The notes beneath the pieces are model-generated. The model saw nothing but the letters and a program-made list of their open reading frames with translations. It did no database searches and was not told the DNA's origin. A program made the translations under genes and the position numbers. This document shows, piece by piece, positions 1 through 64,000 of a DNA stretch of 64,000 nucleotides. Source of the stretch: Eledone cirrhosa. Lineage: Eukaryota. How positions within the stretch are numbered: position 1 is the stretch's first letter; the number at the start of each line of letters is the position of its first letter. The DNA lies in NCBI GenBank assembly GCA_964016885.1, contig OZ024740.1, positions 40,548,001-40,612,000 on the forward strand. Direction: 5' to 3'.

Positions 1-80
1 TGTCTGAGTAAAATATTCAATTTACAGAAAATTAACCTCAGAAGTTAAGAATAAAAAATTAAAAGATTTTATTATCTTAC

Positions 81-114
81 TGATAGTTGTATTTTCCTTT
101 AATGTCGATCACAT
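81..114 (-). other. Exon-like cassette d (34 nt), canonical AG/GT; unit-1 copy, repeated in every unit
   Basis: Minus strand: tgtgtttctgtgtttcatttattggcag|ATGTGATCGACATTAAAGGAAAATACAACTATCA|gtaagat. The only open frame reads xVIDIKGKYNY(Q/H). Confidence 0.65.
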
Positions 115-248
115 CTGCCAATAAATGAAACACAGAAACACACACACAAACTCATTTTTAACACAAAGTTAAGCTAGGAAACACTTGTGAGAAATATATT
201 CAAATCTAAAGAATTATGGTTTTTATGTAGAAATTAGAATACACTTAC

Positions 249-274
249 ATTAATTTTTCCAACTAGTCCAATAC
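249..274 (-). other. Exon-like cassette a (26 nt), canonical AG/GT
   Basis: tttttttttgtctctacaactgattcatttaag|GTATTGGACTAGTTGGAAAAATTAAT|gtaagtgt. Perfect GTAAGT donor. Paralogous to 1300-1325. Confidence 0.6.
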
Positions 275-448
275 CTTAAATGAATCAGTTGTAGAGACAA
301 AAAAAAATATCCATAACCTTTACAGTTATGTATTGACAATATATTCTGTATTTACTAAACGATTACAAAACTATGGTTTAAATATTCCTTAAACTATCAA
401 TTTAACATTACAAAAGACCAACAGAAAATAGAAATGAAGATGTCTTAT

Positions 449-493
449 CTGATGGAAATATTCTACTTTGCCCTTTTCATGTCAGCATTATAT
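449..493 (-). other. Exon-like cassette b (45 nt), good acceptor, degenerate donor (AG|ataag)
   Basis: tgtgtaattttttatccttggcag|ATATAATGCTGACATGAAAAGGGCAAAGTAGAATATTTCCATCAG|ataagac. Stops in all three frames. Same length as its paralogue at 1493-1537. Confidence 0.45.
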
Positions 494-663
494 CTGCCAA
501 GGATAAAAAATTACACAAACACACACACATATGCAGTCAAAAAGGCTACATCAATTTTAATGCACAGAAAAGCAATTTCATGTTATATTAAAATTGTTTA
601 TCATTTTACATTCCATGTTCAAGTTATACTGACATTCACTAAAGTTGGAAAACAGTTTCATAC

Positions 664-730
664 CAGCACAATTTCAATCTTTCTGCCTTGAATCCACATC
701 ATTTCTCTAAACACTTTCCATTTTCAGTAC
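664..730 (-). other. Exon-like cassette c (67 nt; 78 nt if the acceptor at 742-744 is used), donor GTATGA
   Basis: tctatttgtttcacag aaaaggtttag|GTACTGAAAATGG...GATTGAAATTGTGCTG|gtatgaa. Stops in all three frames. Paralogous to 1670-1732. Confidence 0.5.
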
Positions 731-810
731 CTAAACCTTTTCTGTGAAACAAATAGAGCATGTTTTCCGAAACACTACAAACTAGTTGAAAGGAAAGAAA
801 TCTTTCTTAC

Positions 811-846
811 ACTACAATATTCAAATATATTATTTCAACAACAAAC
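811..846 (-). other. Exon-like cassette e (36 nt), GTAAGA donor, weak acceptor
   Basis: attatacatgtag|GTTTGTTGTTGAAATAATATATTTGAATATTGTAGT|gtaagaaag. One open symmetric frame, FVVEIIY(L/F)NIVV. An 80-nt intron-like gap separates it from cassette c. Confidence 0.4.
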
Positions 847-1102
847 CTACATGTATAATATAATACATATCAAGAGTCATTCTATACAGATAATATCTAT
901 ACTACAATGAGACACAAAATGTTTATGTTATAATTACAGAAGCATGTTATTTTAAGATGAAAATGTTTAATCTGAAATTAATTTACATCAATGAAAAATA
1001 GAAATTCACAATCACAGAATCAAAATTTATCATACATATTAATCATGCAAGAAATGTGAAGTAAAAAAAAAATTAATTCACAAAAACAAATATTTAGCTT
1101 AT

Positions 1103-1146
1103 CTTTGTTGGCTTTCATGTATTTTGTGTTATATTGTTGATCACAT
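1103..1146 (-). other. Exon-like cassette d' (44 nt), strong acceptor, degenerate donor (AG|ataag)
   Basis: (tg)n tctgtttctctctattttgtttcttgacag|ATGTGATCAACAATATAACACAAAATACATGAAAGCCAACAAAG|ataagct. Shares cagATGTGATC with cassette d. Confidence 0.5.
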
Positions 1147-1163
1147 CTGTCAAGAAACAAAAT

Positions 1164-1215
1164 AGAGAGAAACAGACACACACACACACACACACACATA
1201 CATATATATATATAT
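1164..1215. repeat. Compound microsatellite (AG)n-(AC)n-(AT)n, one per unit, length-variable
   Basis: agagaga aacag (ac)11 atac (at)n in unit 1. Length changes here explain most unit-length differences (2018, 2006, 2010, 2014). Confidence 0.95.
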
Positions 1216-1299
1216 TTTAAACATTCTTATAATGAATGTGAATTATATCTAAAATGTTAAGAATTATAACTTTCAAGTAGAAAACTGAAAAACACTTAC

Positions 1300-1325
1300 A
1301 GTAAACTTTCAAACTACTCCAATTC
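1300..1325 (-). other. Exon-like cassette a' (26 nt), canonical AG/GT
   Basis: aaattattctcatttaag|GAATTGGAGTAGTTTGAAAGTTTACT|gtaagtgt. The only open frame reads NWSSLKV(Y/S). Confidence 0.6.
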
Positions 1326-1492
1326 CTTAAATGAGAATAATTTAGGAGGAAAACAATCTTATAACCTACATACGTAGAAAAGAATTAGGAAATTTGTTTT
1401 TTTCACATATCGATCAAGGACATTATATAAAATATTTACTTTAACACACCAAAAGACCAATAGTTAATAGAGAGGAAGGAAAAACATCTTAG

Positions 1493-1537
1493 CTTAGTGA
1501 ACGGTTCTATCTGATCTCCTGTATGTCATCTTTACAT
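1493..1537 (-). other. Exon-like cassette b' (45 nt), degenerate donor (AG|ctaag)
   Basis: tttctatcattagcag|ATGTAAAGATGACATACAGGAGATCAGATAGAACCGTTCACTAAG|ctaagat. Stops in all three frames. Confidence 0.45.
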
Positions 1538-1669
1538 CTGCTAATGATAGAAACTTACATACATAGCCAGAAAATAATAATATACTTAGAAGTCAATAAT
1601 TTCACTGTTATATTGATATTATATATTATTTGGCATTCACACATACTAATAGAAAAGAATTGATCATAC

Positions 1670-1732
1670 CGCACAATTTCAATGCTTCTATCTTCAATCC
1701 ATTGGATCTTGAAAAACTGCCATTATTATTGC
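1670..1732 (-). other. Exon-like cassette c' (63 nt, symmetric phase 1-1, open frame), canonical AG/GT
   Basis: tgctttgttttacccaaaatatttag|GCAATAATAATGGCAGTTTTTCAAGATCCAATGGATTGAAGATAGAAGCATTGAAATTGTGCG|gtatgat. Reads (G)NNNGSFSRSNGLKIEALKLC. Confidence 0.6.
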
Positions 1733-1815
1733 CTAAATATTTTGGGTAAAACAAAGCATGTTTTCCTAAGCACTGCATCTTATATATCAACTGATAAGTA
1801 AAACTTGCTACTTAC

Positions 1816-1843
1816 AGAGTAATATTCACCTTAGTTTTGTATG
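1816..1843 (-). other. Exon-like cassette e' (28 nt), canonical AG/GT
   Basis: tttggcttgttttgtaaacactttaattccag|CATACAAAACTAAGGTGAATATTACTCT|gtaagtag. An 83-nt intron-like gap separates it from cassette c'. Confidence 0.55.
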
Positions 1844-4800
1844 CTGGAATTAAAGTGTTTACAAAACAAGCCAAAATTGATGATGTGCAACACATGACAA
1901 CTACTAATTTGTCTTGTTAATTATATATATTACCATACCAACATTCTCATTACAGTGATATTATCAAAATCTTGAAACATAAGAAAATGCTATATACTAA
2001 ATTGAAATTTCATTTCATTGTCTGAGTAAAATATTCAATTTACAGAAAATTAACCTCAGAAGTTAAGAATAAAAAATTAAAAGATTTTATTATCTTACTG
2101 ATAGTTGTATTTTCCTTTAATGTTGATCACATCTGCCAATAAATGAAACACAGAAACACACACACAAACTCATTTTTAACACAAAGTTAAGCTAGGAAAC
2201 ACTTGTGAGAAATATATTCAAATCTAAAGAATTATGGTTTTTATGTAGAAATTAGAATACACTTACATTAATTTTTCCAACTAGTCCAATACCTTAAATG
2301 AATCAGTTGTAGAGACAAAAAAAAATATCCATAACCTTTACAGTTATGTATTGACAATATATTCTGTATTTACTAAACGATTACAAAACTATGGTTTAAA
2401 TATTCCTTAAACTATCAATTTAACATTTCAAAAGACCAACAGAAAATAGAAATGAAGATGTCTTATCTGATGGAAATATTCTACTTTGCCCTTTTCATGT
2501 CAGCATTATATCTGCCAAGGATAAAAAATTACACAAACACACACACATATGCAGTCAAAAAGGCTACATCAATTTTAATGCACAGAAAAGCAATTTCATG
2601 TAATATCAAAATTGTTTATCATTTTACATTCCATGTTCAAGTTATACTGACATTCACTAAAGTTGGAAAACAGTTTCATACCAGCACAATTTCAATCTTT
2701 CTGCCTTGAATTCACATCATTTCTCTAAACACTTTCCATTTTCAGTACCTAAACCTTTTCTGTGAAACAAATAGAGCAGGTTTTCCGAAACACTACAAAC
2801 TAGTTGAAAGGAAAGAATTCTTTCTTACACTACAATATTAAAATATATTATTTCAACAACAAACCTACATGTATAATATAATACATATCAAGAGTCATTC
2901 TATACAGATAATATCTATACTACAATGAGACACAAAATGTTTATGTTATAATTACAGAAGCATGTTATTTTAAGAAGAAAATGTTTAATCTGAAATTAAT
3001 TTACATCAATGAAAAATAGAAATTCACAATCACAGAATCAAAATTTATCATACATATTAATCATGCAAGAAATGTGAAGTAAAAAAAAAATTAATTCACA
3101 AAAACAAATATTTAGCTTATCTTTGTTGGCTTTCATGTATTTTGTGTTATATTGTTGATCACATCTGTCAAGAAACAAAATAGAGAGAAACAGACACACA
3201 CACACACACACACATACATATATATATTTTAAACATTCTTATAATGAATGTGAATTATATCTAAAATGTTAAGAATTATAACTTTCAAGTAGAAAACTGA
3301 AAAACACTTACAGGAAACTTTCAAACTACTCCAATTCCTTAAATGAGAATAATTTAGGAGAAAAACAATCTTATAACCTACATACGTAGAAAAGAATTAG
3401 GAAATTTGTTTTTTTCACATATCGATCAAGGACATTATATAAAATATTTACTTTAACACACCAAAAGACCAATAGTTAATAGAGAGGAAGGAAAAACATC
3501 TTAGCTTAGTGAACGGTTCTATCTGATCTCCTGTATGTCATCTTTACATCTGCTAATGATAGAAACTTACATACATAGCCAGAAAATAATAATATACTTA
3601 GAAGTCAATAATTTCACTGTTATATTGATATTATATATTATTTGGCATTCACACATACTAATAGAAAAGAATTGATCATACCGCACAATTTCAATGCTTC
3701 TATCTTCAATCCATTGGATCTTGAAAAACTGCCATTATTATTGCCTAAATATTTTGGGTAAAACAAAGCATGTTTTCCTAAGCACTGCATCTTATATATC
3801 AACTGATAAGTAAAACTTGCTACTTACAGAGTAATATTCACCTTAGTTTTGTATGCTGGAATTAAAGTGTTTACAAAACAAGCCAAAATTGATGATGTGC
3901 AACACATGACAACTACTAATTTGTCTTGTTAATTATATATATTACCATACCAACATTCTCATTACAGTGATATTATCAAAATCTTGAAACATAAGAAAAT
4001 GCTATATACTAAATTGAAATTTCATTTCATCGTCTGAGTAAAATATTCAATTTACAGAAAATTAACCTCAGAAGTTAAGAATAAAAAATTAAAAGATTTT
4101 ATTATCTTACTGATAGTTGTATTTTCCTTTAATGTCGATCACATCTGCCAATAAATGAAACACAGAAACACACACACAAACTCATTTTTAACACAAAGTT
4201 AAGCTAGGAAACACTTGTGAGAAATATATTCAAATCTAAAGAATTATGGTTTTTATGTAGAAATTAGAATACACTTACATTAATTTTTCCAACTAGTCCA
4301 ATACCTTAAATGAATCAGTTGTAGAGACAAAAAAAAATATCCATAACCTTTACAGTTATGTATTGACAATATATTCTGTATTTACTAAACGATTACAAAA
4401 CTATGGTTTAAATATTCCTTAAACTATCAATTTAACATTTCAAAAGACCAACAGAAAATAGAAATGAAGATGTCTTATCTGATGGAAATATTCTACTTTG
4501 CCCTTTTCATGTCAGCATTATATCTGCCAAGGATAAAAAATTACACAAACACACACACATATGCAGTCAAAAAGGCTACATCAATTTTAATGCACAGAAA
4601 AGCAATTTCATGTTATATCAAAATTGTTTATCATTTTACATTCCATGTTCAAGTTATACTGACATTCACTAAAGTTGGAAAACAGTTTCATACCAGCACA
4701 ATTTCAATCTTTCTGCCTTGAATTCACATCATTTCTCTAAACACTTTCCATTTTCAGTACCTAAACCTTTTCTGTGAAACAAATAGAGCAGGTTTTCCGA

Positions 4801-7800
4801 AACACTACAAACTAGTTGAAAGGAAAGAATTCTTTCTTACACTACAATATTAAAATATATTATTTCAACAACAAACCTACATGTATAATATAATACATAT
4901 CAAGAGTCATTCTATACAGATAATATCTATACTACAATGAGACACAAAATGTTTATGTTATAATTACAGAAGCATGTTATTTTAAGAAGAAACTGTTTAA
5001 TCTGAAATTAATTTACATCAATGAAAAATAGAAATTCACAATCACAGAATCAAAATTTATCATACATATTAATCATGCAAGAAATGTGAAGTAAAAAAAA
5101 AATTAATTCACAACATCTTTGTTGGCTTTCATGTATTTTGTGTTATATTGTTGATCACATCTGTCAAGAAACAAAATAGAGAGAAACACACACACACACA
5201 CACACATACATATATATATTTTAAACATTCTTATAATGAATGTGAATTATATCTAAAATGTTAAGAATTATAACTTTCAAGTAGAAAACTGAAAAACACT
5301 TACAGGAAACTTTCAAACTACTCCAATTCCTTAAATGAGAATAATTTAGGAGAAAAACAATCTTATAACCTACATACGTAGAAAAGAATTAGGAAATTTG
5401 TTTTTTTCACATATCTATCAAGGACATTATATAAAATATTTACTTTAACACACCAAAAGACCAATAGTTAATAGAGAGGAAGGAAAAACATCTTAGCTTA
5501 GTGAACGGTTCTATCTGATCTCCTGTATGTCATCTTTACATCTGCTAATGATAGAAACTTACATACATAGCCAGAAAATAATAATATACTTAGAAGTCAA
5601 TAATTTCACTGTTATATTGATATTATATATTATTTGGCATTCACACATACTAATAGAAAAGAATTGATCATACCGCACAATTTCAATGCTTCTATCTTCA
5701 ATCCATTGGATCTTGAAAAACTGCCATTATTATTGCCTAAATATTTTGGGTAAAACAAAGCATGTTTTCCTAAGCACTGCATCTTATATATCAACTGATA
5801 AGTAAAACTTGCTACTTACAGAGTAATATTCACCTTAGTTTTGTATGCTGGAATTAAAGTGTTTACAAAACAAGCCAAAATTGATGATGTGCAACACATG
5901 ACAACTACTAATTTGTCTTGTTAATTATATATATTACCATACCAACATTCTCATTACAGTGATATTATCAAAATCTTGAAACATAAGAAAATGCTATATA
6001 CTAAATTGAAATTTCATTTCATTGTCTGAGTAAAATATTCAATTTACAGAAAATTAACCTCAGAAGTTAAGAATAAAAAATTAAAAGATTTTATTATCTT
6101 ACTGATAGTTGTATTTTCCTTTAATGTCGATCACATCTGCCAATAAATGAAACACAGAAACACACACACAAACTCATTTTTAACACAAAGTTAAGCTAGG
6201 AAACACTTGTGAGAAATATATTCAAATCTAAAGAATTATGGTTTTTATGTAGAAATTAGAATACACTTACATTAATTTTTCCAACTAGTCCAATACCTTA
6301 AATGAATCAGTTGTAGAGACAAAAAAAAATATCCATAACCTTTACAGTTATGTATTGACAATATATTCTGTATTTACTAAACGATTACAAAACTATGGTT
6401 TAAATATTCCTTAAACTATCAATTTAACATTTCAAAAGACCAACAGAAAATAGAAATGAAGATGTCTTATCTGATGGAAATATTCTACTTTGCCCTTTTC
6501 ATGTCAGCATTATATCTGCCAAGGATAAAAAATTACACAAACACACACACATATGCAGTCAAAAAGGCTACATCAATTTTAATGCACAGAAAAGCAATTT
6601 CATGTTATATCAAAATTGTTTATCATTTTACATTCCATGTTCAAGTTATACTGACATTCACTAAAGTTGGAAAACAGTTTCATACCAGCACAATTTCAAT
6701 CTTTCTGCCTTGAATTCACATCATTTCTCTAAACACTTTCCATTTTCAGTACCTAAACCTTTTCTGTGAAACAAATAGAGCAGGTTTTCCGAAACACTAC
6801 AAACTAGTTGAAAGGAAAGAATTCTTTCTTACACTACAATATTAAAATATATTATTTCAACAACAAACCTACATGTATAATATAATACATATCAAGAGTC
6901 ATTCTATACAGATAATATCTATACTACAATGAGACACAAAATGTTTATGTTATAATTACAGAAGCATGTTATTTTAAGAAGAAAATGTTTAATCTGAAAT
7001 TAATTTACATCAATGAAAAATAGAAATTCACAATCACAGAATCAAAATTTATCATACATATTAATCATGCAAGAAATGTGAAGTAAAAAAAAAATTAATT
7101 CACAAAAACAAATATTTAGCTTATCTTTGTTGGCTTTCATGTATTTTGTGTTATATTGTTGATCACATCTGTCAAGAAACAAAATAGAGAGAAACAGACA
7201 CACACACACACATACATATATATATTTTAAACATTCTTATAATGAATGTGAATTATATCTAAAATGTTAAGAATTATAACTTTCAAGTAGAAAACTGAAA
7301 AACACTTACAGTAAACTTTCAAACTACTCCAATTCCTTAAATGAGAATAATTTAGGAGAAAAACAATCTTATAACCTACATACGTAGAAAAGAATTAGGA
7401 AATTTGTTTTTTTCACATATCGATCAAGGACATTATATAAAATATTTACTTTAACACACCAAAAGACCAATAGTTAATAGAGAGGAAGGAAAAACATCTT
7501 AGCTTAGTGAACGGTTCTATCTGATCTCCTGTATGTCATCTTTACATCTGCTAATGATAGAAACTTACATACATAGCCAGAAAATAATAATATACTTAGA
7601 AGTCAATAATTTCACTGTTATATTGATATTATATATTATTTGGCATTCACACATACTAATAGAAAAGAATTGATCATACCGCACAATTTCAATGCTTCTA
7701 TCTTCAATCCATTGGATCTTGAAAAACTGCCATTATTATTGCCTAAATATTTTGGGTAAAACAAAGCATGTTTTCCTAAGCACTGCATCTTATATATCAA

Positions 7801-10800
7801 CTGATAAGTAAAACTTGCTACTTACAGAGTAATATTCACCTTAGTTTTGTATGCTGGAATTAAAGTGTTTACAAAACAAGCCAAAATTGATGATGTGCAA
7901 CACATGACAACTACTAATTTGTCTTGTTAATTATATATATTACCATACCAACATTCTCATTACAGTGATATTATCAAAATCTTGAAACATAAGAAAATGC
8001 TATATACTAAATTGAAATTTCATTTCATTGTGTGAGTAAAATATTCAATTTACAGAAAATTAACCTCAGAAGTTAAGAATAAAAAATTAAAAGATTTTAT
8101 TATCTTACTGATAGTTGTATTTTCCTTTAATGTCGATCACATCTGCCAATAAATGAAACACAGAAACACACACACAAACTCATTTTTAACACAAAGTTAA
8201 GCTAGGAAACACTTGTGAGAAATATATTCAAATCTAAAGAATTATGGTTTTTATGTAGAAATTAGAATACACTTACATTAATTTTTCCAACTAGTCCAAT
8301 ACCTTAAATGAATCAGTTGTAGAGACAAAAAAAAATATCCATAACCTTTACAGTTATGTATTGACAATATATTCTGCATTTACTAAACGATTACAAAACT
8401 ATGGTTTAAATATTCCTTAAACTATCAATTTAACATTTCAAAAGACCAACAGAAAATAGAAATGAAGATGTCTTATCTGATGGAAATATTCTACTTTGCC
8501 CTTTTCATGTCAGCATTATATCTGCCAAGGATAAAAAATTACACAAACACACACACATATGCAGTCAAAAAAGGCTACATCAATTTTAATGCACAGAAAA
8601 GCAATTTCATGTTATATTAAAATTGTTTATCATTTTACATTCCATGTTCAAGTTATACTGACATTCACTAAAGTTGGAAAACAGTTTCATACCAGCACAA
8701 TTTCAATCTTTCTGCCTTGAATTCACATCATTTCTCTAAACACTTTCCATTTTCAGTACCTAAACCTTTTCTGTGAAACAAATAGAGCAGGTTTTCCGAA
8801 ACACTACAAACTAGTTGAAAGGAAAGAATTCTTTCTTACACTACAATATTAAAATATATTATTTCAACAACAAACCTACATGTATAATATAATACATATC
8901 AAGAGTCATTCTATACAGATAATATCTATACTACAATGAGACACAAAATGTTTATGTTATAATTACAGAAGCATGTTATTTTAAGAAGAAACTGTTTAAT
9001 CTGAAATTAATTTACATCAATGAAAAATAGAAATTCACAATCACAGAATCAAAATTTATCATACATATTAATCATGCAAGAAATGTGAAGTAAAAAAAAA
9101 ATTAATTCACAAAAACAAATATTTAGCTTATCTTTGTTGGCTTTCATGTATTTTGTGTTATATTGTTGATCACATCTGTCAAGAAACAAAATAGAGAGAA
9201 ACACACACACACACACACACATACATATATATATTTTAAACATTCTTATAATGAATGTGAATTATATCTAAAATGTTAAGAATTATAACTTTCAAGTAGA
9301 AAACTGAAAAACACTTACAGGAAACTTTCAAACTACTCCAATTCCTTAAATGAGAATAATTTAGGAGAAAAACAATCTTATAACCTACATACGTAGAAAA
9401 GAATTAGGAAATTTGTTTTTTTCACATATCTATCAAGGACATTATATAAAATATTTACTTTAACACACCAAAAGACCAATAGTTAATAGAGAGGAAGGAA
9501 AAACATCTTAGCTTAGTGAACGGTTCTATCTGATCTCCTGTATGTCATCTTTACATCTGCTAATGATAGAAACTTACATACATAGCCAGAAAATAATAAT
9601 ATACTTAGAAGTCAATAATTTCACTGTTATATTGATATTATATATTATTTGGCATTCACACATACTAATAGAAAAGAATTGATCATACCGCACAATTTCA
9701 ATGCTTCTATCTTCAATCCATTGGATCTTGAAAAACTGCCATTATTATTGCCTAAATATTTTGGGTAAAACAAAGCATGTTTTCCTAAGCACTGCATCTT
9801 ATATATCAACTGATAAGTAAAACTTGCTACTTACAGAGTAATATTCACCTTAGTTTTGTATGCTGGAATTAAAGTGTTTACAAAACAAGCCAAAATTGAT
9901 GATGTGCAACACATGACAACTACTAATTTGTCTTGTTAATTATATATATTACCATACCAACATTCTCATTACAGTGATATTATCAAAATCTTGAAACATA
10001 AGAAAATGCTATATACTAAATTGAAATTTCATTTCATTGTCTGAGTAAAATATTCAATTTACAGAAAATTAACCTCAGAAGTTAAGAATAAAAAATTAAA
10101 AGATTTTATTATCTTACTGATAGTTGTATTTTCCTTTAATGTCGATCACATCTGCCAATAAATGAAACACAGAAACACACACACAAACTCATTTTTAACA
10201 CAAAGTTAAGCTAGGAAACACTTGTGAGAAATATATTCAAATCTAAAGAATTATGGTTTTTATGTAGAAATTAGAATACACTTACATTAATTTTTCCAAC
10301 TAGTCCAATACCTTAAATGAATCAGTTGTAGAGACAAAAAAAAATATCCATAACCTTTACAGTTATGTATTGACAATATATTCTGTATTTACTAAACGAT
10401 TACAAAACTATGGTTTAAATATTCCTTAAACTATCAATTTAACATTTCAAAAGACCAACAGAAAATAGAAATGAAGATGTCTTATCTGATGGAAATATTC
10501 TACTTTGCCCTTTTCATGTCAGCATTATATCTGCCAAGGATAAAAAATTACACAAACACACACACATATGCAGTCAAAAAGGCTACATCAATTTTAATGC
10601 ACAGAAAAGCAATTTCATGTTATATCAAAATTGTTTATCATTTTACATTCCATGTTCAAGTTATACTGACATTCACTAAAGTTGGAAAACAGTTTCATAC
10701 CAGCACAATTTCAATCTTTCTGCCTTGAATTCACATCATTTCTCTAAACACTTTCCATTTTCAGTACCTAAACCTTTTCTGTGAAACAAATAGAGCAGGT

Positions 10801-16800: not shown

Positions 16801-19800
16801 TACCTAAACCTTTTCTGTGAAACAAATAGAGCAGGTTTTCCGAAACACTACAAACTAGTTGAAAGGAAAGAATTCTTTCTTACACTACAATATTAAAATA
16901 TATTATTTCAACAACAAACCTACATGTATAATATAATACATATCAAGAGTCATTCTATACAGATAATATCTATACTACAATGAGACACAAAATGTTTATG
17001 TTATAATTACAGAAGCATGTTATTTTAAGAAGAAAATGTTTAATCTGAAATTAATTTACATCAATGAAAAATAGAAATTCACAATCACAGAATCAAAATT
17101 TATCATACATATTAATCATGCAAGAAATGTGAAGTAAAAAAAAAATTAATTCACAAAAACAAATATTTAGCTTATCTTTGTTGGCTTTCATGTATTTTGT
17201 GTTATATTGTTGATCACATCTGTCAAGAAACAAAATAGAGAGAAACAGACACACACACACACACACACATACATATATATATTTTAAACATTCTTATAAT
17301 GAATGTGAATTATATCTAAAATGTTAAGAATTATAACTTTCAAGTAGAAAACTGAAAAACACTTACAGTAAACTTTCAAACTACTCCAATTCCTTAAATG
17401 AGAATAATTTAGGAGAAAAACAATCTTATAACCTACATACGTAGAAAAGAATTAGGAAATTTGTTTTTTTCACATATCGATCAAGGACATTATATAAAAT
17501 ATTTACTTTAACACACCAAAAGACCAATAGTTAATAGAGAGGAAGGAAAAACATCTTAGCTTAGTGAACGGTTCTATCTGATCTCCTGTATGTCATCTTT
17601 ACATCTGCTAATGATAGAAACTTACATACATAGCCAGAAAATAATAATATACTTAGAAGTCAATAATTTCACTGTTATATTGATATTATATATTATTTGG
17701 CATTCACACATACTAATAGAAAAGAATTGATCATACCGCACAATTTCAATGCTTCTATCTTCAATCCATTGGATCTTGAAAAACTGCCATTATTATTGCC
17801 TAAATATTTTGGGTAAAACAAAGCATGTTTTCCTAAGCACTGCATCTTATATATCAACTGATAAGTAAAACTTGCTACTTACAGAGTAATATTCACCTTA
17901 GTTTTGTATGCTGGAATTAAAGTGTTTACAAAACAAGCCAAAATTGATGATGTGCAACACATGACAACTACTAATTTGTCTTGTTAATTATATATATTAC
18001 CATACCAACATTCTCATTACAGTGATATTATCAAAATCTTGAAACATAAGAAAATGCTATATACTAAATTGAAATTTCATTTCATTGTCTGAGTAAAATA
18101 TTCAATTTACAGAAAATTAACCTCAGAAGTTAAGAATAAAAAATTAAAAGATTTTATTATCTTACTGATAGTTGTATTTTCCTTTAATGTCGATCACATC
18201 TGCCAATAAATGAAACACAGAAACACACACACAAACTCATTTTTAACACAAAGTTAAGCTAGGAAACACTTGTGAGAAATATATTCAAATCTAAAGAATT
18301 ATGGTTTTTATGTAGAAATTAGAATACACTTACATTAATTTTTCCAACTAGTCCAATACCTTAAATGAATCAGTTGTAGAGACAAAAAAAAATATCCATA
18401 ACCTTTACAGTTATGTATTGACAATATATTCTGTATTTACTAAACGATTACAAAACTATGGTTTAAATATTCCTTAAACTATCAATTTAACATTACAAAA
18501 GACCAACAGAAAATAGAAATGAAGATGTCTTATCTGATGGAAATATTCTACTTTGCCCTTTTCATGTCAGCATTATATCTGCCAAGGATAAAAAATTACA
18601 CAAACACACACACATATGCAGTCAAAAAGGCTACATCAATTTTAATGCACAGAAAAGCAATTTCATGTTATATTAAAATTGTTTATCATTTTACATTCCA
18701 TGTTCAAGTTATACTGACATTCACTAAAGTTGGAAAACAGTTTCATACCAGCACAATTTCAATCTTTCTGCCTTGAATCCACATCATTTCTCTAAACACT
18801 TTCCATTTTCAGTACCTAAACCTTTTCTGTGAAACAAATAGAGCATGTTTTCCGAAACACTACAAACTAGTTGAAAGGAAAGAAATCTTTCTTACACTAC
18901 AATATTCAAATATATTATTTCAACAACAAACCTACATGTATAATATAATACATATCAAGAGTCATTCTATACAGATAATATCTATACTACAATGAGACAC
19001 AAAATGTTTATGTTATAATTACAGAAGCATGTTATTTTAAGATGAAAATGTTTAATCTGAAATTAATTTACATCAATGAAAAATAGAAATTCACAATCAC
19101 AGAATCAAAATTTATCATACATATTAATCATGCAAGAAATGTGAAGTAAAAAAAAAATTAATTCACAAAAACAAATATTTAGCTTATCTTTGTTGGCTTT
19201 CATGTATTTTGTGTTATATTGTTGATCACATCTGTCAAGAAACAAAATAGAGAGAAACAGACACACACACACACACACACATACATATATATATTTTAAA
19301 CATTCTTATAATGAATGTGAATTATATCTAAAATGTTAAGAATTATAACTTTCAAGTAGAAAACTGAAAAACACTTACAGTAAACTTTCAAACTACTCCA
19401 ATTCCTTAAATGAGAATAATTTAGGAGAAAAACAATCTTATAACCTACATACGTAGAAAAGAATTAGGAAATTTGTTTTTTTCACATATCGATCAAGGAC
19501 ATTATATAAAATATTTACTTTAACACACCAAAAGACCAATAGTTAATAGAGAGGAAGGAAAAACATCTTAGCTTAGTGAACGGTTCTATCTGATCTCCTG
19601 TATGTCATCTTTACATCTGCTAATGATAGAAACTTACATACATAGCCAGAAAATAATAATATACTTAGAAGTCAATAATTTCACTGTTATATTGATATTA
19701 TATATTATTTGGCATTCACACATACTAATAGAAAAGAATTGATCATACCGCACAATTTCAATGCTTCTATCTTCAATCCATTGGATCTTGAAAAACTGCC

Positions 19801-22800
19801 ATTATTATTGCCTAAATATTTTGGGTAAAACAAAGCATGTTTTCCTAAGCACTGCATCTTATATATCAACTGATAAGTAAAACTTGCTACTTACAGAGTA
19901 ATATTCACCTTAGTTTTGTATGCTGGAATTAAAGTGTTTACAAAACAAGCCAAAATTGATGATGTGCAACACATGACAACTACTAATTTGTCTTGTTAAT
20001 TATATATATTACCATACCAACATTCTCATTACAGTGATATTATCAAAATCTTGAAACATAAGAAAATGCTATATACTAAATTGAAATTTCATTTCATTGT
20101 CTGAGTAAAATATTCAATTTACAGAAAATTAACCTCAGAAGTTAAGAATAAAAAATTAAAAGATTTTATTATCTTACTGATAGTTGTATTTTCCTTTAAT
20201 GTCGATCACATCTGCCAATAAATGAAACACAGAAACACACACACAAACTCATTTTTAACACAAAGTTAAGCTAGGAAACACTTGTGAGAAATATATTCAA
20301 ATCTAAAGAATTATGGTTTTTATGTAGAAATTAGAATACACTTACATTAATTTTTCCAACTAGTCCAATACCTTAAATGAATCAGTTGTAGAGACAAAAA
20401 AAAATATCCATAACCTTTACAGTTATGTATTGACAATATATTCTGTATTTACTAAACGATTACAAAACTATGGTTTAAATATTCCTTAAACTATCAATTT
20501 AACATTACAAAAGACCAACAGAAAATAGAAATGAAGATGTCTTATCTGATGGAAATATTCTACTTTGCCCTTTTCATGTCAGCATTATATCTGCCAAGGA
20601 TAAAAAATTACACAAACACACACACATATGCAGTCAAAAAGGCTACATCAATTTTAATGCACAGAAAAGCAATTTCATGTTATATTAAAATTGTTTATCA
20701 TTTTACATTCCATGTTCAAGTTATACTGACATTCACTAAAGTTGGAAAACAGTTTCATACCAGCACAATTTCAATCTTTCTGCCTTGAATCCACATCATT
20801 TCTCTAAACACTTTCCATTTTCAGTACCTAAACCTTTTCTGTGAAACAAATAGAGCATGTTTTCCGAAACACTACAAACTAGTTGAAAGGAAAGAAATCT
20901 TTCTTACACTACAATATTCAAATATATTATTTCAACAACAAACCTACATGTATAATATAATACATATCAAGAGTCATTCTATACAGATAATATCTATACT
21001 ACAATGAGACACAAAATGTTTATGTTATAATTACAGAAGCATGTTATTTTAAGATGAAAATGTTTAATCTGAAATTAATTTACATCAATGAAAAATAGAA
21101 ATTCACAATCACAGAATCAAAATTTATCATACATATTAATCATGCAAGAAATGTGAAGTAAAAAAAAAATTAATTCACAAAAACAAATATTTAGCTTATC
21201 TTTGTTGGCTTTCATGTATTTTGTGTTATATTGTTGATCACATCTGTCAAGAAACAAAATAGAGAGAAACAGACACACACACACACACACACATACATAT
21301 ATATATTTTAAACATTCTTATAATGAATGTGAATTATATCTAAAATGTTAAGAATTATAACTTTCAAGTAGAAAACTGAAAAACACTTACAGTAAACTTT
21401 CAAACTACTCCAATTCCTTAAATGAGAATAATTTAGGAGAAAAACAATCTTATAACCTACATACGTAGAAAAGAATTAGGAAATTTGTTTTTTTCACATA
21501 TCGATCAAGGACATTATATAAAATATTTACTTTAACACACCAAAAGACCAATAGTTAATAGAGAGGAAGGAAAAACATCTTAGCTTAGTGAACGGTTCTA
21601 TCTGATCTCCTGTATGTCATCTTTACATCTGCTAATGATAGAAACTTACATACATAGCCAGAAAATAATAATATACTTAGAAGTCAATAATTTCACTGTT
21701 ATATTGATATTATATATTATTTGGCATTCACACATACTAATAGAAAAGAATTGATCATACCGCACAATTTCAATGCTTCTATCTTCAATCCATTGGATCT
21801 TGAAAAACTGCCATTATTATTGCCTAAATATTTTGGGTAAAACAAAGCATGTTTTCCTAAGCACTGCATCTTATATATCAACTGATAAGTAAAACTTGCT
21901 ACTTACAGAGTAATATTCACCTTAGTTTTGTATGCTGGAATTAAAGTGTTTACAAAACAAGCCAAAATTGATGATGTGCAACACATGACAACTACTAATT
22001 TGTCTTGTTAATTATATATATTACCATACCAACATTCTCATTACAGTGATATTATCAAAATCTTGAAACATAAGAAAATGCTATATACTAAATTGAAATT
22101 TCATTTCATTGTCTGAGTAAAATATTCAATTTACAGAAAATTAACCTCAGAAGTTAAGAATAAAAAATTAAAAGATTTTATTATCTTACTGATAGTTGTA
22201 TTTTCCTTTAATGTCGATCACATCTGCCAATAAATGAAACACAGAAACACACACACAAACTCATTTTTAACACAAAGTTAAGCTAGGAAACACTTGTGAG
22301 AAATATATTCAAATCTAAAGAATTATGGTTTTTATGTAGAAATTAGAATACACTTACATTAATTTTTCCAACTAGTCCAATACCTTAAATGAATCAGTTG
22401 TAGAGACAAAAAAAAATATCCATAACCTTTACAGTTATGTATTGACAATATATTCTGTATTTACTAAACGATTACAAAACTATGGTTTAAATATTCCTTA
22501 AACTATCAATTTAACATTTCAAAAGACCAACAGAAAATAGAAATGAAGATGTCTTATCTGATGGAAATATTCTACTTTGCCCTTTTCATGTCAGCATTAT
22601 ATCTGCCAAGGATAAAAAATTACACAAACACACACACATATGCAGTCAAAAAGGCTACATCAATTTTAATGCACAGAAAAGCAATTTCATGTTATATCAA
22701 AATTGTTTATCATTTTACATTCCATGTTCAAGTTATACTGACATTCACTAAAGTTGGAAAACAGTTTCATGCCAGCACAATTTCAATCTTTCTGCCTTGA

Positions 22801-31800: not shown

Positions 31801-32166
31801 AAAAGAATTGATCATACCGCACAATTTCAATGCTTCTATCTTCAATCCATTGGATCTTGAAAAACTGCCATTATTATTGCCTAAATATTTTGGGTAAAAC
31901 AAAGCATGTTTTCCTAAGCACTGCATCTTATATATCAACTGATAAGTAAAACTTGCTACTTACAGAGTAATATTCACCTTAGTTTTGTATGCTGGAATTA
32001 AAGTGTTTACAAAACAAGCCAAAATTGATGATGTGCAACACATGACAACTACTAATTTGTCTTGTTAATTATATATATTACCATACCAACATTCTCATTA
32101 CAGTGATATTATCAAAATCTTGAAACATAAGAAAATGCTATATACTAAATTGAAATTTCATTTCAT

Positions 32167-55200: not shown

Positions 55201-58200
55201 TACAATGAGACACAAAATGTTTATGTTATAATTACAGAAGCATGTTATTTTAAGATGAAAATGTTTAATCTGAAATTAATTTACATCAATGAAAAATAGA
55301 AATTCACAATCACAGAATCAAAATTTATCATACATATTAATCATGCAAGAAATGTGAAGTAAAAAAAAAATTAATTCACAAAAACAAATATTTAGCTTAT
55401 CTTTGTTGGCTTTCATGTATTTTGTGTTATATTGTTGATCACATCTGTCAAGAAACAAAATAGAGAGAAACAGACACACACACACACACACACATACATA
55501 TATATATTTTAAACATTCTTATAATGAATGTGAATTATATCTAAAATGTTAAGAATTATAACTTTCAAGTAGAAAACTGAAAAACACTTACAGTAAACTT
55601 TCAAACTACTCCAATTCCTTAAATGAGAATAATTTAGGAGAAAAACAATCTTATAACCTACATACGTAGAAAAGAATTAGGAAATTTGTTTTTTTCACAT
55701 ATCGATCAAGGACATTATATAAAATATTTACTTTAACACACCAAAAGACCAATAGTTAATAGAGAGGAAGGAAAAACATCTTAGCTTAGTGAACGGTTCT
55801 ATCTGATCTCCTGTATGTCATCTTTACATCTGCTAATGATAGAAACTTACATACATAGCCAGAAAATAATAATATACTTAGAAGTCAATAATTTCACTGT
55901 TATATTGATATTATATATTATTTGGCATTCACACATACTAATAGAAAAGAATTGATCATACCGCACAATTTCAATGCTTCTATCTTCAATCCATTGGATC
56001 TTGAAAAACTGCCATTATTATTGCCTAAATATTTTGGGTAAAACAAAGCATGTTTTCCTAAGCACTGCATCTTATATATCAACTGATAAGTAAAACTTGC
56101 TACTTACAGAGTAATATTCACCTTAGTTTTGTATGCTGGAATTAAAGTGTTTACAAAACAAGCCAAAATTGATGATGTGCAACACATGACAACTACTAAT
56201 TTGTCTTGTTAATTATATATATTACCATACCAACATTCTCATTACAGTGATATTATCAAAATCTTGAAACATAAGAAAATGCTATATACTAAATTGAAAT
56301 TTCATTTCATTGTCTGAGTAAAATATTCAATTTACAGAAAATTAACCTCAGAAGTTAAGAATAAAAAATTAAAAGATTTTATTATCTTACTGATAGTTGT
56401 ATTTTCCTTTAATGTCGATCACATCTGCCAATAAATGAAACACAGAAACACACACACAAACTCATTTTTAACACAAAGTTAAGCTAGGAAACACTTGTGA
56501 GAAATATATTCAAATCTAAAGAATTATGGTTTTTATGTAGAAATTAGAATACACTTACATTAATTTTTCCAACTAGTCCAATACCTTAAATGAATCAGTT
56601 GTAGAGACAAAAAAAAATATCCATAACCTTTACAGTTATGTATTGACAATATATTCTGTATTTACTAAACGATTACAAAACTATGGTTTAAATATTCCTT
56701 AAACTATCAATTTAACATTACAAAAGACCAACAGAAAATAGAAATGAAGATGTCTTATCTGATGGAAATATTCTACTTTGCCCTTTTCATGTCAGCATTA
56801 TATCTGCCAAGGATAAAAAATTACACAAACACACACACATATGCAGTCAAAAAGGCTACATCAATTTTAATGCACAGAAAAGCAATTTCATGTTATATTA
56901 AAATTGTTTATCATTTTACATTCCATGTTCAAGTTATACTGACATTCACTAAAGTTGGAAAACAGTTTCATACCAGCACAATTTCAATCTTTCTGCCTTG
57001 AATCCACATCATTTCTCTAAACACTTTCCATTTTCAGTACCTAAACCTTTTCTGTGAAACAAATAGAGCATGTTTTCCGAAACACTACAAACTAGTTGAA
57101 AGGAAAGAAATCTTTCTTACACTACAATATTCAAATATATTATTTCAACAACAAACCTACATGTATAATATAATACATATCAAGAGTCATTCTATACAGA
57201 TAATATCTATACTACAATGAGACACAAAATGTTTATGTTATAATTACAGAAGCATGTTATTTTAAGATGAAAATGTTTAATCTGAAATTAATTTACATCA
57301 ATGAAAAATAGAAATTCACAATCACAGAATCAAAATTTATCATACATATTAATCATGCAAGAAATGTGAAGTAAAAAAAAAATTAATTCACAAAAACAAA
57401 TATTTAGCTTATCTTTGTTGGCTTTCATGTATTTTGTGTTATATTGTTGATCACATCTGTCAAGAAACAAAATAGAGAGAAACAGACACACACACACACA
57501 CACACATACATATATATATTTTAAACATTCTTATAATGAATGTGAATTATATCTAAAATGTTAAGAATTATAACTTTCAAGTAGAAAACTGAAAAACACT
57601 TACAGTAAACTTTCAAACTACTCCAATTCCTTAAATGAGAATAATTTAGGAGAAAAACAATCTTATAACCTACATACGTAGAAAAGAATTAGGAAATTTG
57701 TTTTTTTCACATATCGATCAAGGACATTATATAAAATATTTACTTTAACACACCAAAAGACCAATAGTTAATAGAGAGGAAGGAAAAACATCTTAGCTTA
57801 GTGAACGGTTCTATCTGATCTCCTGTATGTCATCTTTACATCTGCTAATGATAGAAACTTACATACATAGCCAGAAAATAATAATATACTTAGAAGTCAA
57901 TAATTTCACTGTTATATTGATATTATATATTATTTGGCATTCACACATACTAATAGAAAAGAATTGATCATACCGCACAATTTCAATGCTTCTATCTTCA
58001 ATCCATTGGATCTTGAAAAACTGCCATTATTATTGCCTAAATATTTTGGGTAAAACAAAGCATGTTTTCCTAAGCACTGCATCTTATATATCAACTGATA
58101 AGTAAAACTTGCTACTTACAGAGTAATATTCACCTTAGTTTTGTATGCTGGAATTAAAGTGTTTACAAAACAAGCCAAAATTGATGATGTGCAACACATG

Positions 58201-61200
58201 ACAACTACTAATTTGTCTTGTTAATTATATATATTACCATACCAACATTCTCATTACAGTGATATTATCAAAATCTTGAAACATAAGAAAATGCTATATA
58301 CTAAATTGAAATTTCATTTCATTGTCTGAGTAAAATATTCAATTTACAGAAAATTAACCTCAGAAGTTAAGAATAAAAAATTAAAAGATTTTATTATCTT
58401 ACTGATAGTTGTATTTTCCTTTAATGTCGATCACATCTGCCAATAAATGAAACACAGAAACACACACACAAACTCATTTTTAACACAAAGTTAAGCTAGG
58501 AAACACTTGTGAGAAATATATTCAAATCTAAAGAATTATGGTTTTTATGTAGAAATTAGAATACACTTACATTAATTTTTCCAACTAGTCCAATACCTTA
58601 AATGAATCAGTTGTAGAGACAAAAAAAAATATCCATAACCTTTACAGTTATGTATTGACAATATATTCTGTATTTACTAAACGATTACAAAACTATGGTT
58701 TAAATATTCCTTAAACTATCAATTTAACATTTCAAAAGACCAACAGAAAATAGAAATGAAGATGTCTTATCTGATGGAAATATTCTACTTTGCCCTTTTC
58801 ATGTCAGCATTATATCTGCCAAGGATAAAAAATTACACAAACACACACACATATGCAGTCAAAAAGGCTACATCAATTTTAATGCACAGAAAAGCAATTT
58901 CATGTTATATTAAAATTGTTTATCATTTTACATTCCATGTTCAAGTTATACTGACATTCACTAAAGTTGGAAAACAGTTTCATACCAGCACAATTTCAAT
59001 CTTTCTGCCTTGAATCCACATCATTTCTCTAAACACTTTCCATTTTCAGTACCTAAACCTTTTCTGTGAAACAAATAGAGCAGGTTTTCCGAAACACTAC
59101 AAACTAGTTGAAAGGAAAGAATTCTTTCTTACACTACAATATTCAAATATATTATTTCAACAACAAACCTACATGTATAATATAATACATATCAAGAGTC
59201 ATTCTATACAGATAATATCTATACTACAATGAGACACAAAATGTTTATGTTATAATTACAGAAGCATGTTATTTTAAGATGAAAATGTTTAATCTGAAAT
59301 TAATTTACATCAATGAAAAATAGAAATTCACAATCACAGAATCAAAATTTATCATACATATTAATCATGCAAGAAATGTGAAGTAAAAAAAAAATTAATT
59401 CACAAAAACAAATATTTAGCTTATCTTTGTTGGCTTTCATGTATTTTGTGTTATATTGTTGATCACATCTGTCAAGAAACAAAATAGAGAGAAACACACA
59501 CACACACACACACACACATACATATATATATTTTAAACATTCTTATAATGAATGTGAATTATATCTAAAATGTTAAGAATTATAACTTTCAAGTAGAAAA
59601 CTGAAAAACACTTACAGGAAACTTTCAAACTACTCCAATTCCTTAAATGAGAATAATTTAGGAGAAAAACAATCTTATAACCTACATACGTAGAAAAGAA
59701 TTAGGAAATTTGTTTTTTTCACATATCTATCAAGGACATTATATAAAATATTTACTTTAACACACCAAAAGACCAATAGTTAATAGAGAGGAAGGAAAAA
59801 CATCTTAGCTTAGTGAACGGTTCTATCTGATCTCCTGTATGTCATCTTTACATCTGCTAATGATAGAAACTTACATACATAGCCAGAAAATAATAATATA
59901 CTTAGAAGTCAATAATTTCACTGTTATATTGATATTATATATTATTTGGCATTCACACATACTAATAGAAAAGAATTGATCATACCGCACAATTTCAATG
60001 CTTCTATCTTCAATCCATTGGATCTTGAAAAACTGCCATTATTATTGCCTAAATATTTTGGGTAAAACAAAGCATGTTTTCCTAAGCACTGCATCTTATA
60101 TATCAACTGATAAGTAAAACTTGCTACTTACAGAGTAATATTCACCTTAGTTTTGTATGCTGGAATTAAAGTGTTTACAAAACAAGCCAAAATTGATGAT
60201 GTGCAACACATGACAACTACTAATTTGTCTTGTTAATTATATATATTACCATACCAACATTCTCATTACAGTGATATTATCAAAATCTTGAAACATAAGA
60301 AAATGCTATATACTAAATTGAAATTTCATTTCATTGTCTGAGTAAAATATTCAATTTACAGAAAATTAACCTCAGAAGTTAAGAATAAAAAATTAAAAGA
60401 TTTTATTATCTTACTGATAGTTGTATTTTCCTTTAATGTCGATCACATCTGCCAATAAATGAAACACAGAAACACACACACAAACTCATTTTTAACACAA
60501 AGTTAAGCTAGGAAACACTTGTGAGAAATATATTCAAATCTAAAGAATTATGGTTTTTATGTAGAAATTAGAATACACTTACATTAATTTTTCCAACTAG
60601 TCCAATACCTTAAATGAATCAGTTGTAGAGACAAAAAAAAATATCCATAACCTTTACAGTTATGTATTGACAATATATTCTGTATTTACTAAACGATTAC
60701 AAAACTATGGTTTAAATATTCCTTAAACTATCAATTTAACATTACAAAAGACCAACAGAAAATAGAAATGAAGATGTCTTATCTGATGGAAATATTCTAC
60801 TTTGCCCTTTTCATGTCAGCATTATATCTGCCAAGGATAAAAAATTACACAAACACACACACATATGCAGTCAAAAAGGCTACATCAATTTTAATGCACA
60901 GAAAAGCAATTTCATGTTATATTAAAATTGTTTATCATTTTACATTCCATGTTCAAGTTATACTGACATTCACTAAAGTTGGAAAACAGTTTCATACCAG
61001 CACAATTTCAATCTTTCTGCCTTGAATCCACATCATTTCTCTAAACACTTTCCATTTTCAGTACCTAAACCTTTTCTGTGAAACAAATAGAGCATGTTTT
61101 CCGAAACACTACAAACTAGTTGAAAGGAAAGAAATCTTTCTTACACTACAATATTCAAATATATTATTTCAACAACAAACCTACATGTATAATATAATAC

Positions 61201-64000
61201 ATATCAAGAGTCATTCTATACAGATAATATCTATACTACAATGAGACACAAAATGTTTATGTTATAATTACAGAAGCATGTTATTTTAAGATGAAAATGT
61301 TTAATCTGAAATTAATTTACATCAATGAAAAATAGAAATTCACAATCACAGAATCAAAATTTATCATACATATTAATCATGCAAGAAATGTGAAGTAAAA
61401 AAAAAATTAATTCACAAAAACAAATATTTAGCTTATCTTTGTTGGCTTTCATGTATTTTGTGTTATATTGTTGATCACATCTGTCAAGAAACAAAATAGA
61501 GAGAAACAGACACACACACACACACACACATACATATATATATTTTAAACATTCTTATAATGAATGTGAATTATATCTAAAATGTTAAGAATTATAACTT
61601 TCAAGTAGAAAACTGAAAAACACTTACAGTAAACTTTCAAACTACTCCAATTCCTTAAATGAGAATAATTTAGGAGAAAAACAATCTTATAACCTACATA
61701 CGTAGAAAAGAATTAGGAAATTTGTTTTTTTCACATATCGATCAAGGACATTATATAAAATATTTACTTTAACACACCAAAAGACCAATAGTTAATAGAG
61801 AGGAAGGAAAAACATCTTAGCTTAGTGAACGGTTCTATCTGATCTCCTGTATGTCATCTTTACATCTGCTAATGATAGAAACTTACATACATAGCCAGAA
61901 AATAATAATATACTTAGAAGTCAATAATTTCACTGTTATATTGATATTATATATTATTTGGCATTCACACATACTAATAGAAAAGAATTGATCATACCGC
62001 ACAATTTCAATGCTTCTATCTTCAATCCATTGGATCTTGAAAAACTGCCATTATTATTGCCTAAATATTTTGGGTAAAACAAAGCATGTTTTCCTAAGCA
62101 CTGCATCTTATATATCAACTGATAAGTAAAACTTGCTACTTACAGAGTAATATTCACCTTAGTTTTGTATGCTGGAATTAAAGTGTTTACAAAACAAGCC
62201 AAAATTGATGATGTGCAACACATGACAACTACTAATTTGTCTTGTTAATTATATATATTACCATACCAACATTCTCATTACAGTGATATTATCAAAATCT
62301 TGAAACATAAGAAAATGCTATATACTAAATTGAAATTTCATTTCATTGTCTGAGTAAAATATTCAATTTACAGAAAATTAACCTCAGAAGTTAAGAATAA
62401 AAAATTAAAAGATTTTATTATCTTACTGATAGTTGTATTTTCCTTTAATGTCGATCACATCTGCCAATAAATGAAACACAGAAACACACACACAAACTCA
62501 TTTTTAACACAAAGTTAAGCTAGGAAACACTTGTGAGAAATATATTCAAATCTAAAGAATTATGGTTTTTATGTAGAAATTAGAATACACTTACATTAAT
62601 TTTTCCAACTAGTCCAATACCTTAAATGAATCAGTTGTAGAGACAAAAAAAAATATCCATAACCTTTACAGTTATGTATTGACAATATATTCTGTATTTA
62701 CTAAACGATTACAAAACTATGGTTTAAATATTCCTTAAACTATCAATTTAACATTTCAAAAGACCAACAGAAAATAGAAATGAAGATGTCTTATCTGATG
62801 GAAATATTCTACTTTGCCCTTTTCATGTCAGCATTATATCTGCCAAGGATAAAAAATTACACAAACACACACACATATGCAGTCAAAAAGGCTACATCAA
62901 TTTTAATGCACAGAAAAGCAATTTCATGTTATATTAAAATTGTTTATCATTTTACATTCCATGTTCAAGTTATACTGACATTCACTAAAGTTGGAAAACA
63001 GTTTCATACCAGCACAATTTCAATCTTTCTGCCTTGAATCCACATCATTTCTCTAAACACTTTCCATTTTCAGTACCTAAACCTTTTCTGTGAAACAAAT
63101 AGAGCATGTTTTCCGAAACACTACAAACTAGTTGAAAGGAAAGAATTCTTTCTTACACTACAATATTCAAATATATTATTTCAACAACAAACCTACATGT
63201 ATAATATAATACATATCAAGAGTCATTCTATACAGATAATATCTATACTACAATGAGACACAAAATGTTTATGTTATAATTACAGAAGCATGTTATTTTA
63301 AGATGAAAATGTTTAATCTGAAATTAATTTACATCAATGAAAAATAGAAATTCACAATCACAGAATCAAAATTTATCATACATATTAATCATGCAAGAAA
63401 TGTGAAGTAAAAAAAAAATTAATTCACAAAAACAAATATTTAGCTTATCTTTGTTGGCTTTCATGTATTTTGTGTTATATTGTTGATCACATCTGTCAAG
63501 AAACAAAATAGAGAGAAACACACACACACACACACACACACATACATATATATATTTTAAACATTCTTATAATGAATGTGAATTATATCTAAAATGTTAA
63601 GAATTATAACTTTCAAGTAGAAAACTGAAAAACACTTACAGGAAACTTTCAAACTACTCCAATTCCTTAAATGAGAATAATTTAGGAGAAAAACAATCTT
63701 ATAACCTACATACGTAGAAAAGAATTAGGAAATTTGTTTTTTTCACATATCTATCAAGGACATTATATAAAATATTTACTTTAACACACCAAAAGACCAA
63801 TAGTTAATAGAGAGGAAGGAAAAACATCTTAGCTTAGTGAACGGTTCTATCTGATCTCCTGTATGTCATCTTTACATCTGCTAATGATAGAAACTTACAT
63901 ACATAGCCAGAAAATAATAATATACTTAGAAGTCAATAATTTCACTGTTATATTGATATTATATATTATTTGGCATTCACACATACTAATAGAAAAGAAT
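52287..64000. repeat. Second, partial copy of the higher-order block (D-A-A-C'-A-C), cut by the window end
   Basis: All ten diagnostic sites in each of six consecutive units match those from 32167 onward. Confidence 0.75.

Follow-up and report, generated by a model that had tools for sequence, protein, structure and literature searches.

An AT-rich tandem array in Eledone cirrhosa that probably arose by amplification of an old exon-intron block

Results

Architecture of the array

The window analysed here is a 64,000-nucleotide (nt) stretch of Eledone cirrhosa DNA (assembly GCA_964016885.1, contig OZ024740.1, positions 40,548,001 to 40,612,000), and the whole of it is a single tandem array. 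An anchor search located 32 unit starts, and the full units measure 1,992-2,018 bp, mostly 2,012 bp. Each unit carries ten short segments on the minus strand, hereafter cassettes, that begin after an AG acceptor and resemble very small exons. The features are as follows, with positions in the window taken from the first unit and the cassettes in the order in which a minus-strand transcript would meet them.

1..64000, no strand assigned: tandem array, GC 27% along its entire length; 31 complete units and one incomplete unit of 1,636 bp
19..2036, minus: unit 1, 2,018 bp (typical length 2,012 bp); a dimer of two halves of about 1 kb, about 72% identical over aligned columns
1816..1843, minus: cassette e', 28 nt; AG acceptor, GTAAGT donor, internal alternative GT at 1829
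1670..1732, minus: cassette c', 63 nt; AG acceptor, GTATGA donor; multiple of three, stop-free in phase 1
1493..1537, minus: cassette b', 45 nt; AG acceptor; ends AG/CTAAG (slash, cassette end), no GT donor
1300..1325, minus: cassette a', 26 nt; AG acceptor, GTAAGT donor
1172..1210, plus: (AC)n/(AT)n microsatellite, the length-variable part of the unit; on the minus strand, the (TG)n upstream of the d' acceptor
1103..1146, minus: cassette d', 44 nt; strongest acceptor, behind the (TG)n tract; ends AG/ATAAG, no GT donor
811..846, minus: cassette e, 36 nt; AG acceptor, GTAAGA donor; multiple of three, stop-free in phase 2
664..730, minus: cassette c, 67 nt; AG acceptor, GTATGA donor (GC in unit 12)
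449..493, minus: cassette b, 45 nt; AG acceptor behind a TG-rich tract; ends AG/ATAAG, no GT donor
249..274, minus: cassette a, 26 nt; AG acceptor, best-scoring donor GTAAGT
81..114, minus: cassette d, 34 nt; AG acceptor behind a TG-rich tract, GTAAGA donor; AATAAA from 73

An earlier, sequence-only reading of this DNA had described ten minus-strand segments per unit, each preceded by AG, seven of them ending in GTAAG or GTATG and all separated by gaps of short-intron size. On these points the description holds: all ten lie at the positions and have the lengths it gave, the AG is present at every one of the 318 cassette copies that the window contains, the seven donor types are as described, and the gaps measure 80-256 nt. 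Its count of more than 300 segments bounded by splice signals stands for the acceptor side, but AG and GT together flank only 221 of the 318 copies, because b, b' and d' end in AG/ATAAG, AG/CTAAG and AG/ATAAG, respectively. Moreover, since the copies are more than 99% identical, the 300 cassettes amount to ten sequences in five paralog pairs, which probably go back to two ancestral types. The motif GTAWGW occurs 13 times on the minus strand of unit 1 and once on the plus strand; GT sites at 1829, 1558 and 850 score no worse than the donors chosen.

Among the 31 full units, copies differ by 0-13 substitutions (mean 5.2), and ten shared variant sites sort them into ten haplotypes, one of which accounts for 11 copies. 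The haplotypes run ABCDEDDDDAADFGGDHAAIAJAHAIHAAIA along the units; in units 17-31 (32185-62364) the commonest type alternates with others, so that a period of 4,024 bp is partly visible, and rare substitutions are absent there. Rare substitutions are confined to units 1-5 and 12, which suggests that the left edge of the array may lie close to the start of the window. Four of 21 substitution sites fall inside cassettes, against 4.3 expected, one donor has changed from GT to GC (cassette c of unit 12), and the d' end is missing from one copy. CpG is found 7 times where 35 would be expected, and TG and CA are overrepresented, a depletion that suggests a CpG-methylating genome of vertebrate-like pattern.

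The unit itself has a layered internal structure. A four-copy repeat, with spacings of 379, 653 and 391 bp, spans the TG-rich acceptors of d, b, d' and b'. The 3' ends of cassettes a, c and e and of the primed copies are loosely alike ahead of GTA(A/T)G, a weak resemblance. Internal repeats thus recur at about 390 bp and about 1 kb, in the nested pattern of exon doublet, block and array, with the a/c/e grouping its weak element. The likely order of events is a two-exon module of about 390 bp, then a five-cassette block, then the dimer and finally the array.

Splice-like signals compared with chance

Scored with splice-site weight matrices and thresholds of 5/4, the minus strand of the unit has 10 donors against 6.5 in shuffled sequence (34 of 300 shuffles reach 10), 14 acceptors against 7.3 (2 of 300 reach 14) and 4 complete cassettes against 1.3 (20 of 300 reach 4). 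The plus strand has no donor at these thresholds with the same matrices, which are approximations. Scoring of both strands against shuffles had been proposed as a check on the sequence-only reading, and its outcome is mixed: a modest minus-strand excess at the working thresholds and none at the strictest.

Composition gives a clearer signal. Purines make up 61% of the cassettes and 49% of length-matched random segments that also start after AG (1 of 20,000 draws; P about 5e-5), and T makes up 28% against 40% (0 of 20,000 draws). The purine excess is seen in each half of the unit alone (P 0.010 and 0.00025). With microsatellites and acceptor tracts removed, the spacers show T over A and G over C on the minus strand, with skews of 0.12 and 0.12; such a T>A and G>C skew is expected of introns on their sense strand.

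The two diverged halves of the unit also allow conservation to be compared between its parts. The 8 nt that follow the cassettes are 87% identical between halves, compared with 77% for the sequence before the acceptors, 72% for the cassettes and 70% deep in the spacers, on a compressed scale on which shuffled controls reach 66% at the gap costs used. Three donor-like sites are paired between the halves, against 0.41-0.54 in simulations at like divergence (1, 3 and 1 of 150 simulations reach three), and the plus strand has no paired donor-like site. Taken together, the composition, the paired donors and the spacer skew mean that the exon-intron anatomy of the minus strand reads as real.

The ends of b, b' and d'

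The ends of b, b' and d' are the sole AGHTAAG sites on the minus strand of each unit; the plus strand has two. At these ends (444-450, 1098-1104 and 1488-1494, minus strand, in each unit) both flanks of a consensus donor are kept and its first G is gone, twice as AG/ATAAG and once as AG/CTAAG. The end of d, CA/GTAAG, can be read as the same AG/(A/C)TAAG motif one base shorter with GT intact, the alignment of the d end being ambiguous. The pattern could come from a single early loss whose flanks were kept oddly well or from several hits at one position, and the common end of three paralogous cassettes is the unexplained point of the array. Downstream of b and b', a spacer block (400-440 and 1440-1478, minus strand) is 79% identical between halves and ends in GT in both (411 and 1449). 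These GTs are possible alternative donors, with which b and b' would be 82 and 88 nt long.

Coding capacity and homology

The cassettes joined in order encode no protein. An in-order join of all ten contains 36-56 stops per approximately 550 codons, with a longest open run of 38 codons, and joining the seven GT cassettes gives a longest run of 31 codons; a protein made from in-order cassettes, which the sequence-only reading had left room for, is thereby not supported. Four of the ten cassettes have a length that is a multiple of three, and only c' (phase 1) and e (phase 2) are open when joined to themselves. Comparisons within paralog pairs yield 0-2 synonymous changes each, in every frame, with no synonymous bias.

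Homology searches with the cassette peptides returned no credible protein match; the queries were short and consisted mainly of the phase-1 reading of c and c', which makes these negatives weak. A word-based protein search with c' and its flanks against longer proteins gave 3 candidates, none at E 10 or better. The ESM Atlas gave no usable match, neither d nor c' matched a PDB entry at E 10, and Pfam gave nothing at cut-off for 12 open reading frames. A HMMER profile of c' and c searched against 1.84 billion proteins matched only one (P0001, E 8e-6), a score made up of six summed weak matches of which the best reaches 10.7 bits, and we rejected it as an unrelated repeat protein. P0001 (516 aa), which is unrelated to the window, has a weak UQ_con match at residues 73-100 followed by repeats of about 59 residues. 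It looks as if part of a gene for a ubiquitin-conjugating enzyme had been amplified in tandem and then read straight through.

Non-coding signatures are similarly few. Rfam returned only its mir-297 model, on the TG tract (22 bits against a cut-off of 90, E 1.8). The box C motif RTGATGA is absent from both strands of the unit, as are U12 donor motifs from the unit. No stable hairpin was found: the lowest energy is -20.3 kcal/mol per 90 nt, and the best minus-strand z is -2.9 among 68 windows per strand. On the plus strand the best folding z values are -3.6 and -3.4, at 1729-1818 and 1339-1428 (25 shuffles each, 68 windows); their energies are weak and they are probably due to chance. Literature queries, which were generic and so make a weak negative, found no description of this array.

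Copies in public data

The unit, or part of it, is present in seven public sequencing runs, none recorded as RNA. At least half of the words of the unit are found in four of these, all under one organism label, and one of the seven runs (X4; 88 million letters, library type unrecorded) contains 0.86 of them. Because just 124 of the 1,982 31-mers of the unit are internal to cassettes, such a share implies unspliced sequence, whatever the library. Contigs from five of ten listed runs (X1, X2, X5, X6 and X7) were compared with the unit. In two runs of one sample, the array contigs have depths of 540-634 and 444-491, while two contigs of about 88% identity, among the matches listed, have depths of 16-19 and 13-15, a ratio of 28-40. 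If the diverged contigs are single-copy, the array would comprise about 30-40 units (60-80 kb) and the window would hold most of it, which suggests a local expansion and not a megabase satellite.

Both diverged contigs are rearranged relatives of the unit. Contig 1 has the order a, d, a' and is missing e', c' and b'; contig 2 retains d', e and the acceptor of c, and has a 36-nt insertion. Between contig 1 and the array, 33 of 36 differences are distributed as 7/60 sites in cassettes, 21/154 in spacers and 5/27 in acceptor tracts, with 0/12 donor sites changed; cassettes have thus changed at the pace of the spacers.

Runs X5, X6 and X7, under three other organism labels, contain short pieces 98-100% identical to the unit at 18104-20115, and one 151-nt contig among these matches joins two parts of the unit on opposite strands. 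Contamination, reduced-representation data and close relatives are indistinguishable as sources of these pieces, and we did not use them as relatives. A metagenome pattern match (L001) was discarded as a 23-nt chance match in a contig of 43% GC.

Discussion

We suggest that the unit is, on balance, an old exon-intron block or spliced gene fragment on the minus strand, non-coding or decayed, that has recently been amplified to about 30-40 copies by unequal crossing-over. The starting point would have been a module of about 390 bp, consisting of an exon of the a/c/e type with a GT donor and an exon of the b/d type, about 45 nt long, behind a TG-rich acceptor. Duplication of this two-exon module would have produced the 1-kb block, and duplication of the block the 2-kb unit, at a time when the splice donors were presumably still under selection. 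The donor of the b/d type may then have lost its GT, and the 2-kb unit would have been expanded and homogenised by unequal exchange. Should a host transcript cross the array, splicing would be expected to skip or read through b, b' and d', and the remaining cassettes, joined in order, would yield an RNA riddled with stops; the array would be a passenger of its locus that encodes no product.

The sequence-only reading had placed the array inside, or derived it from, a multi-exon gene whose block had undergone an amplification of at least 32-fold. The base composition, the paired donors, the skew between strands and the diverged relatives with the same cassettes support an exon-block origin on the minus strand and its amplification; ten working exons per unit are not supported, as three donors lack GT. 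A bolder form of that proposal is a living, lineage-specific gene whose body is the array of about 70 kb, its more than 300 micro-exon cassettes being joined by combinatorial splicing into one long, repetitive RNA, and with the AG/(A/C)TAAG of the b/d type kept in three paralogs as a non-canonical donor or a splicing decoy. We consider such a gene improbable.

Several points weigh against the amplified-fragment interpretation. The cassettes were chosen by eye in the earlier reading, which may have favoured purine-rich ones, and the approximate weight matrices give site counts without excess over shuffles at the strictest threshold. Under a strict pyrimidine acceptor rule only one paired cassette is recovered, because several of the acceptors are A-rich. 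Stops by phase number 16/135, 8/128 and 8/131 against about 12 expected, so that phases 1 and 2 are somewhat stop-poor. In contig 1 all 12 donor positions and the two AGs are unchanged, which fits continued selection and is not significant at about 13% divergence. Finally, contig depth is a rough guide and no proper measure of copy number, and the label of gene fragment itself rests on sequence statistics.

Among other explanations, we regard as possible, if rather unlikely, that the array functions as the body of a long non-coding RNA (lncRNA) made by splicing, in which the seven GT cassettes, perhaps with b, b' and d' through downstream or non-canonical donors, would form a repetitive multivalent scaffold or a small-RNA precursor. 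Donors that are kept while exon letters drift are the pattern expected of a non-coding spliced transcript, and the signals all lie on one strand; GTAWGW is found 13 times on minus and once on plus in unit 1. However, three of ten donors lack GT, the copies show no constraint (a comparison of low power), the best Rfam match has an E of 1.8, and the lowest folding energy falls short of a stable hairpin. A small-RNA host array of the SNHG14 or C19MC type, with small nucleolar RNAs (snoRNAs) or microRNAs in short introns and spacer exons, is the explanation to which we give the least credence. Repeated short non-coding exons with introns of 130-260 nt do fit that architecture, and a mir-297 model matches at 22 bits, but this match is far under the 90-bit cut-off and rests on the TG tract, and neither box C, on either strand, nor any strong hairpin was found.

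A plain AT-rich satellite or transposon-derived repeat, with splice-like motifs that arose by chance and were copied in the internal duplications, would be another account; AG and GTA(A/T)G are common in AT-rich DNA, the enrichment in site counts is weak, and there are only five paralog pairs of perhaps two ancestral types. We nevertheless think it improbable overall, because the contrast in purine and T content is tied to the cassettes, donor pairing exceeds simulation and is zero on the plus strand, the copy number is modest and the diverged relatives are rearranged. The array might instead encode a repeat protein by selective splicing, for instance of c' only, which would give 21 residues about 32 times in the manner of DAZ exon 7. 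Cassette c' is suited to this, with 63 nt, AG and GT and a stop-free self-join in phase 1, as is e in phase 2, and the indels between c and c' preserve the frame through the middle. Such splicing would have to skip nine cassettes per unit, some of them with better sites; the paralog c carries a stop and an extra base, synonymous bias is absent, and the searches gave no credible protein match. We hold a repeat protein to be very improbable.

If the array did originate as an amplified exon-intron block, it would be a clean case of a macrosatellite born from such a block, with three layers of duplication legible in one unit, and would show how gene fragments become satellites. If it is spliced, hundreds of near-identical splice sites would compete within one transcript, and the array would offer a dense natural system in which to study how micro-exons are defined and how TG-tract acceptors and non-GT donors are used.

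Comparison with known systems

SNHG14 and C19MC have repeated non-coding exons on one strand. The cassettes resemble them as repeated, non-coding, exon-like pieces on a single strand, and differ in that Rfam, box C and folding searches detected no intronic snoRNA or microRNA. In schistosome micro-exon genes (MEGs), the length of most exons is divisible by three, the introns span 0.1-5 kb and a signal peptide is present (PMC10526429). Many very short exons are common to both; we set this class aside on exon length and open frame, with four of ten cassettes here being multiples of three and two open when self-joined. A cluster of receptor J segments or hinge exons was likewise ruled out: the recombination heptamer and nonamer are absent on both strands, and a likeness of d to T-cell receptor gamma hinge exons (TRGC exon 2; PMC7349638) is unsupported, neither d nor c' having a PDB match at E 10.

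In ANKRD36 and ANKRD30A, pairs of micro-exons lie in AT-rich introns, and these are coding, each pair summing to a multiple of three. Both are among the genes with long internal repeats (PMC4079513). The array shares the internal repeats and the setting of small exon pairs in AT-rich introns, but those genes are coding, and our protein searches, which involved no direct sequence comparison with them, gave no such match. DAZ exon 7, for its part, is one in-frame coding exon per unit of about 2.4 kb. The exon-7 arrays are intragenic tandem arrays of an exon unit whose copy number has been shaped by duplications and deletions (PMC13252187). The likeness lies in an intragenic-type tandem array of an exon-bearing unit; here, in contrast, each unit has ten cassettes, no frame and three ends without GT. 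The sequence-only reading had recognised no sequence similarity to systems of the DAZ and ANKRD36 type, and our searches agree, weakly, given the short queries.

With the class of coding exon-block arrays (DAZ, NBPF and ANKRD36), the array has in common a homogeneous tandem unit with exon-like segments; the open frame of that class is absent, and the short-query searches gave no homology to a known family. Amplification of exon blocks is itself an already known process in these genes. In the NBPF/Olduvai HLS triplets, exon doublets are arranged in a higher-order expanded block, with a first exon of about 52 nt, small introns and purine-rich exons (PMC9313022). The doublets encode a domain and their second exon exceeds approximately 140 nt, whereas the cassettes here are 26-67 nt long, stop-ridden and without a Pfam match above cut-off. 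The nested logic that leads from doublet to block to array is the same in both, and makes NBPF/Olduvai the closest architectural match to this array.

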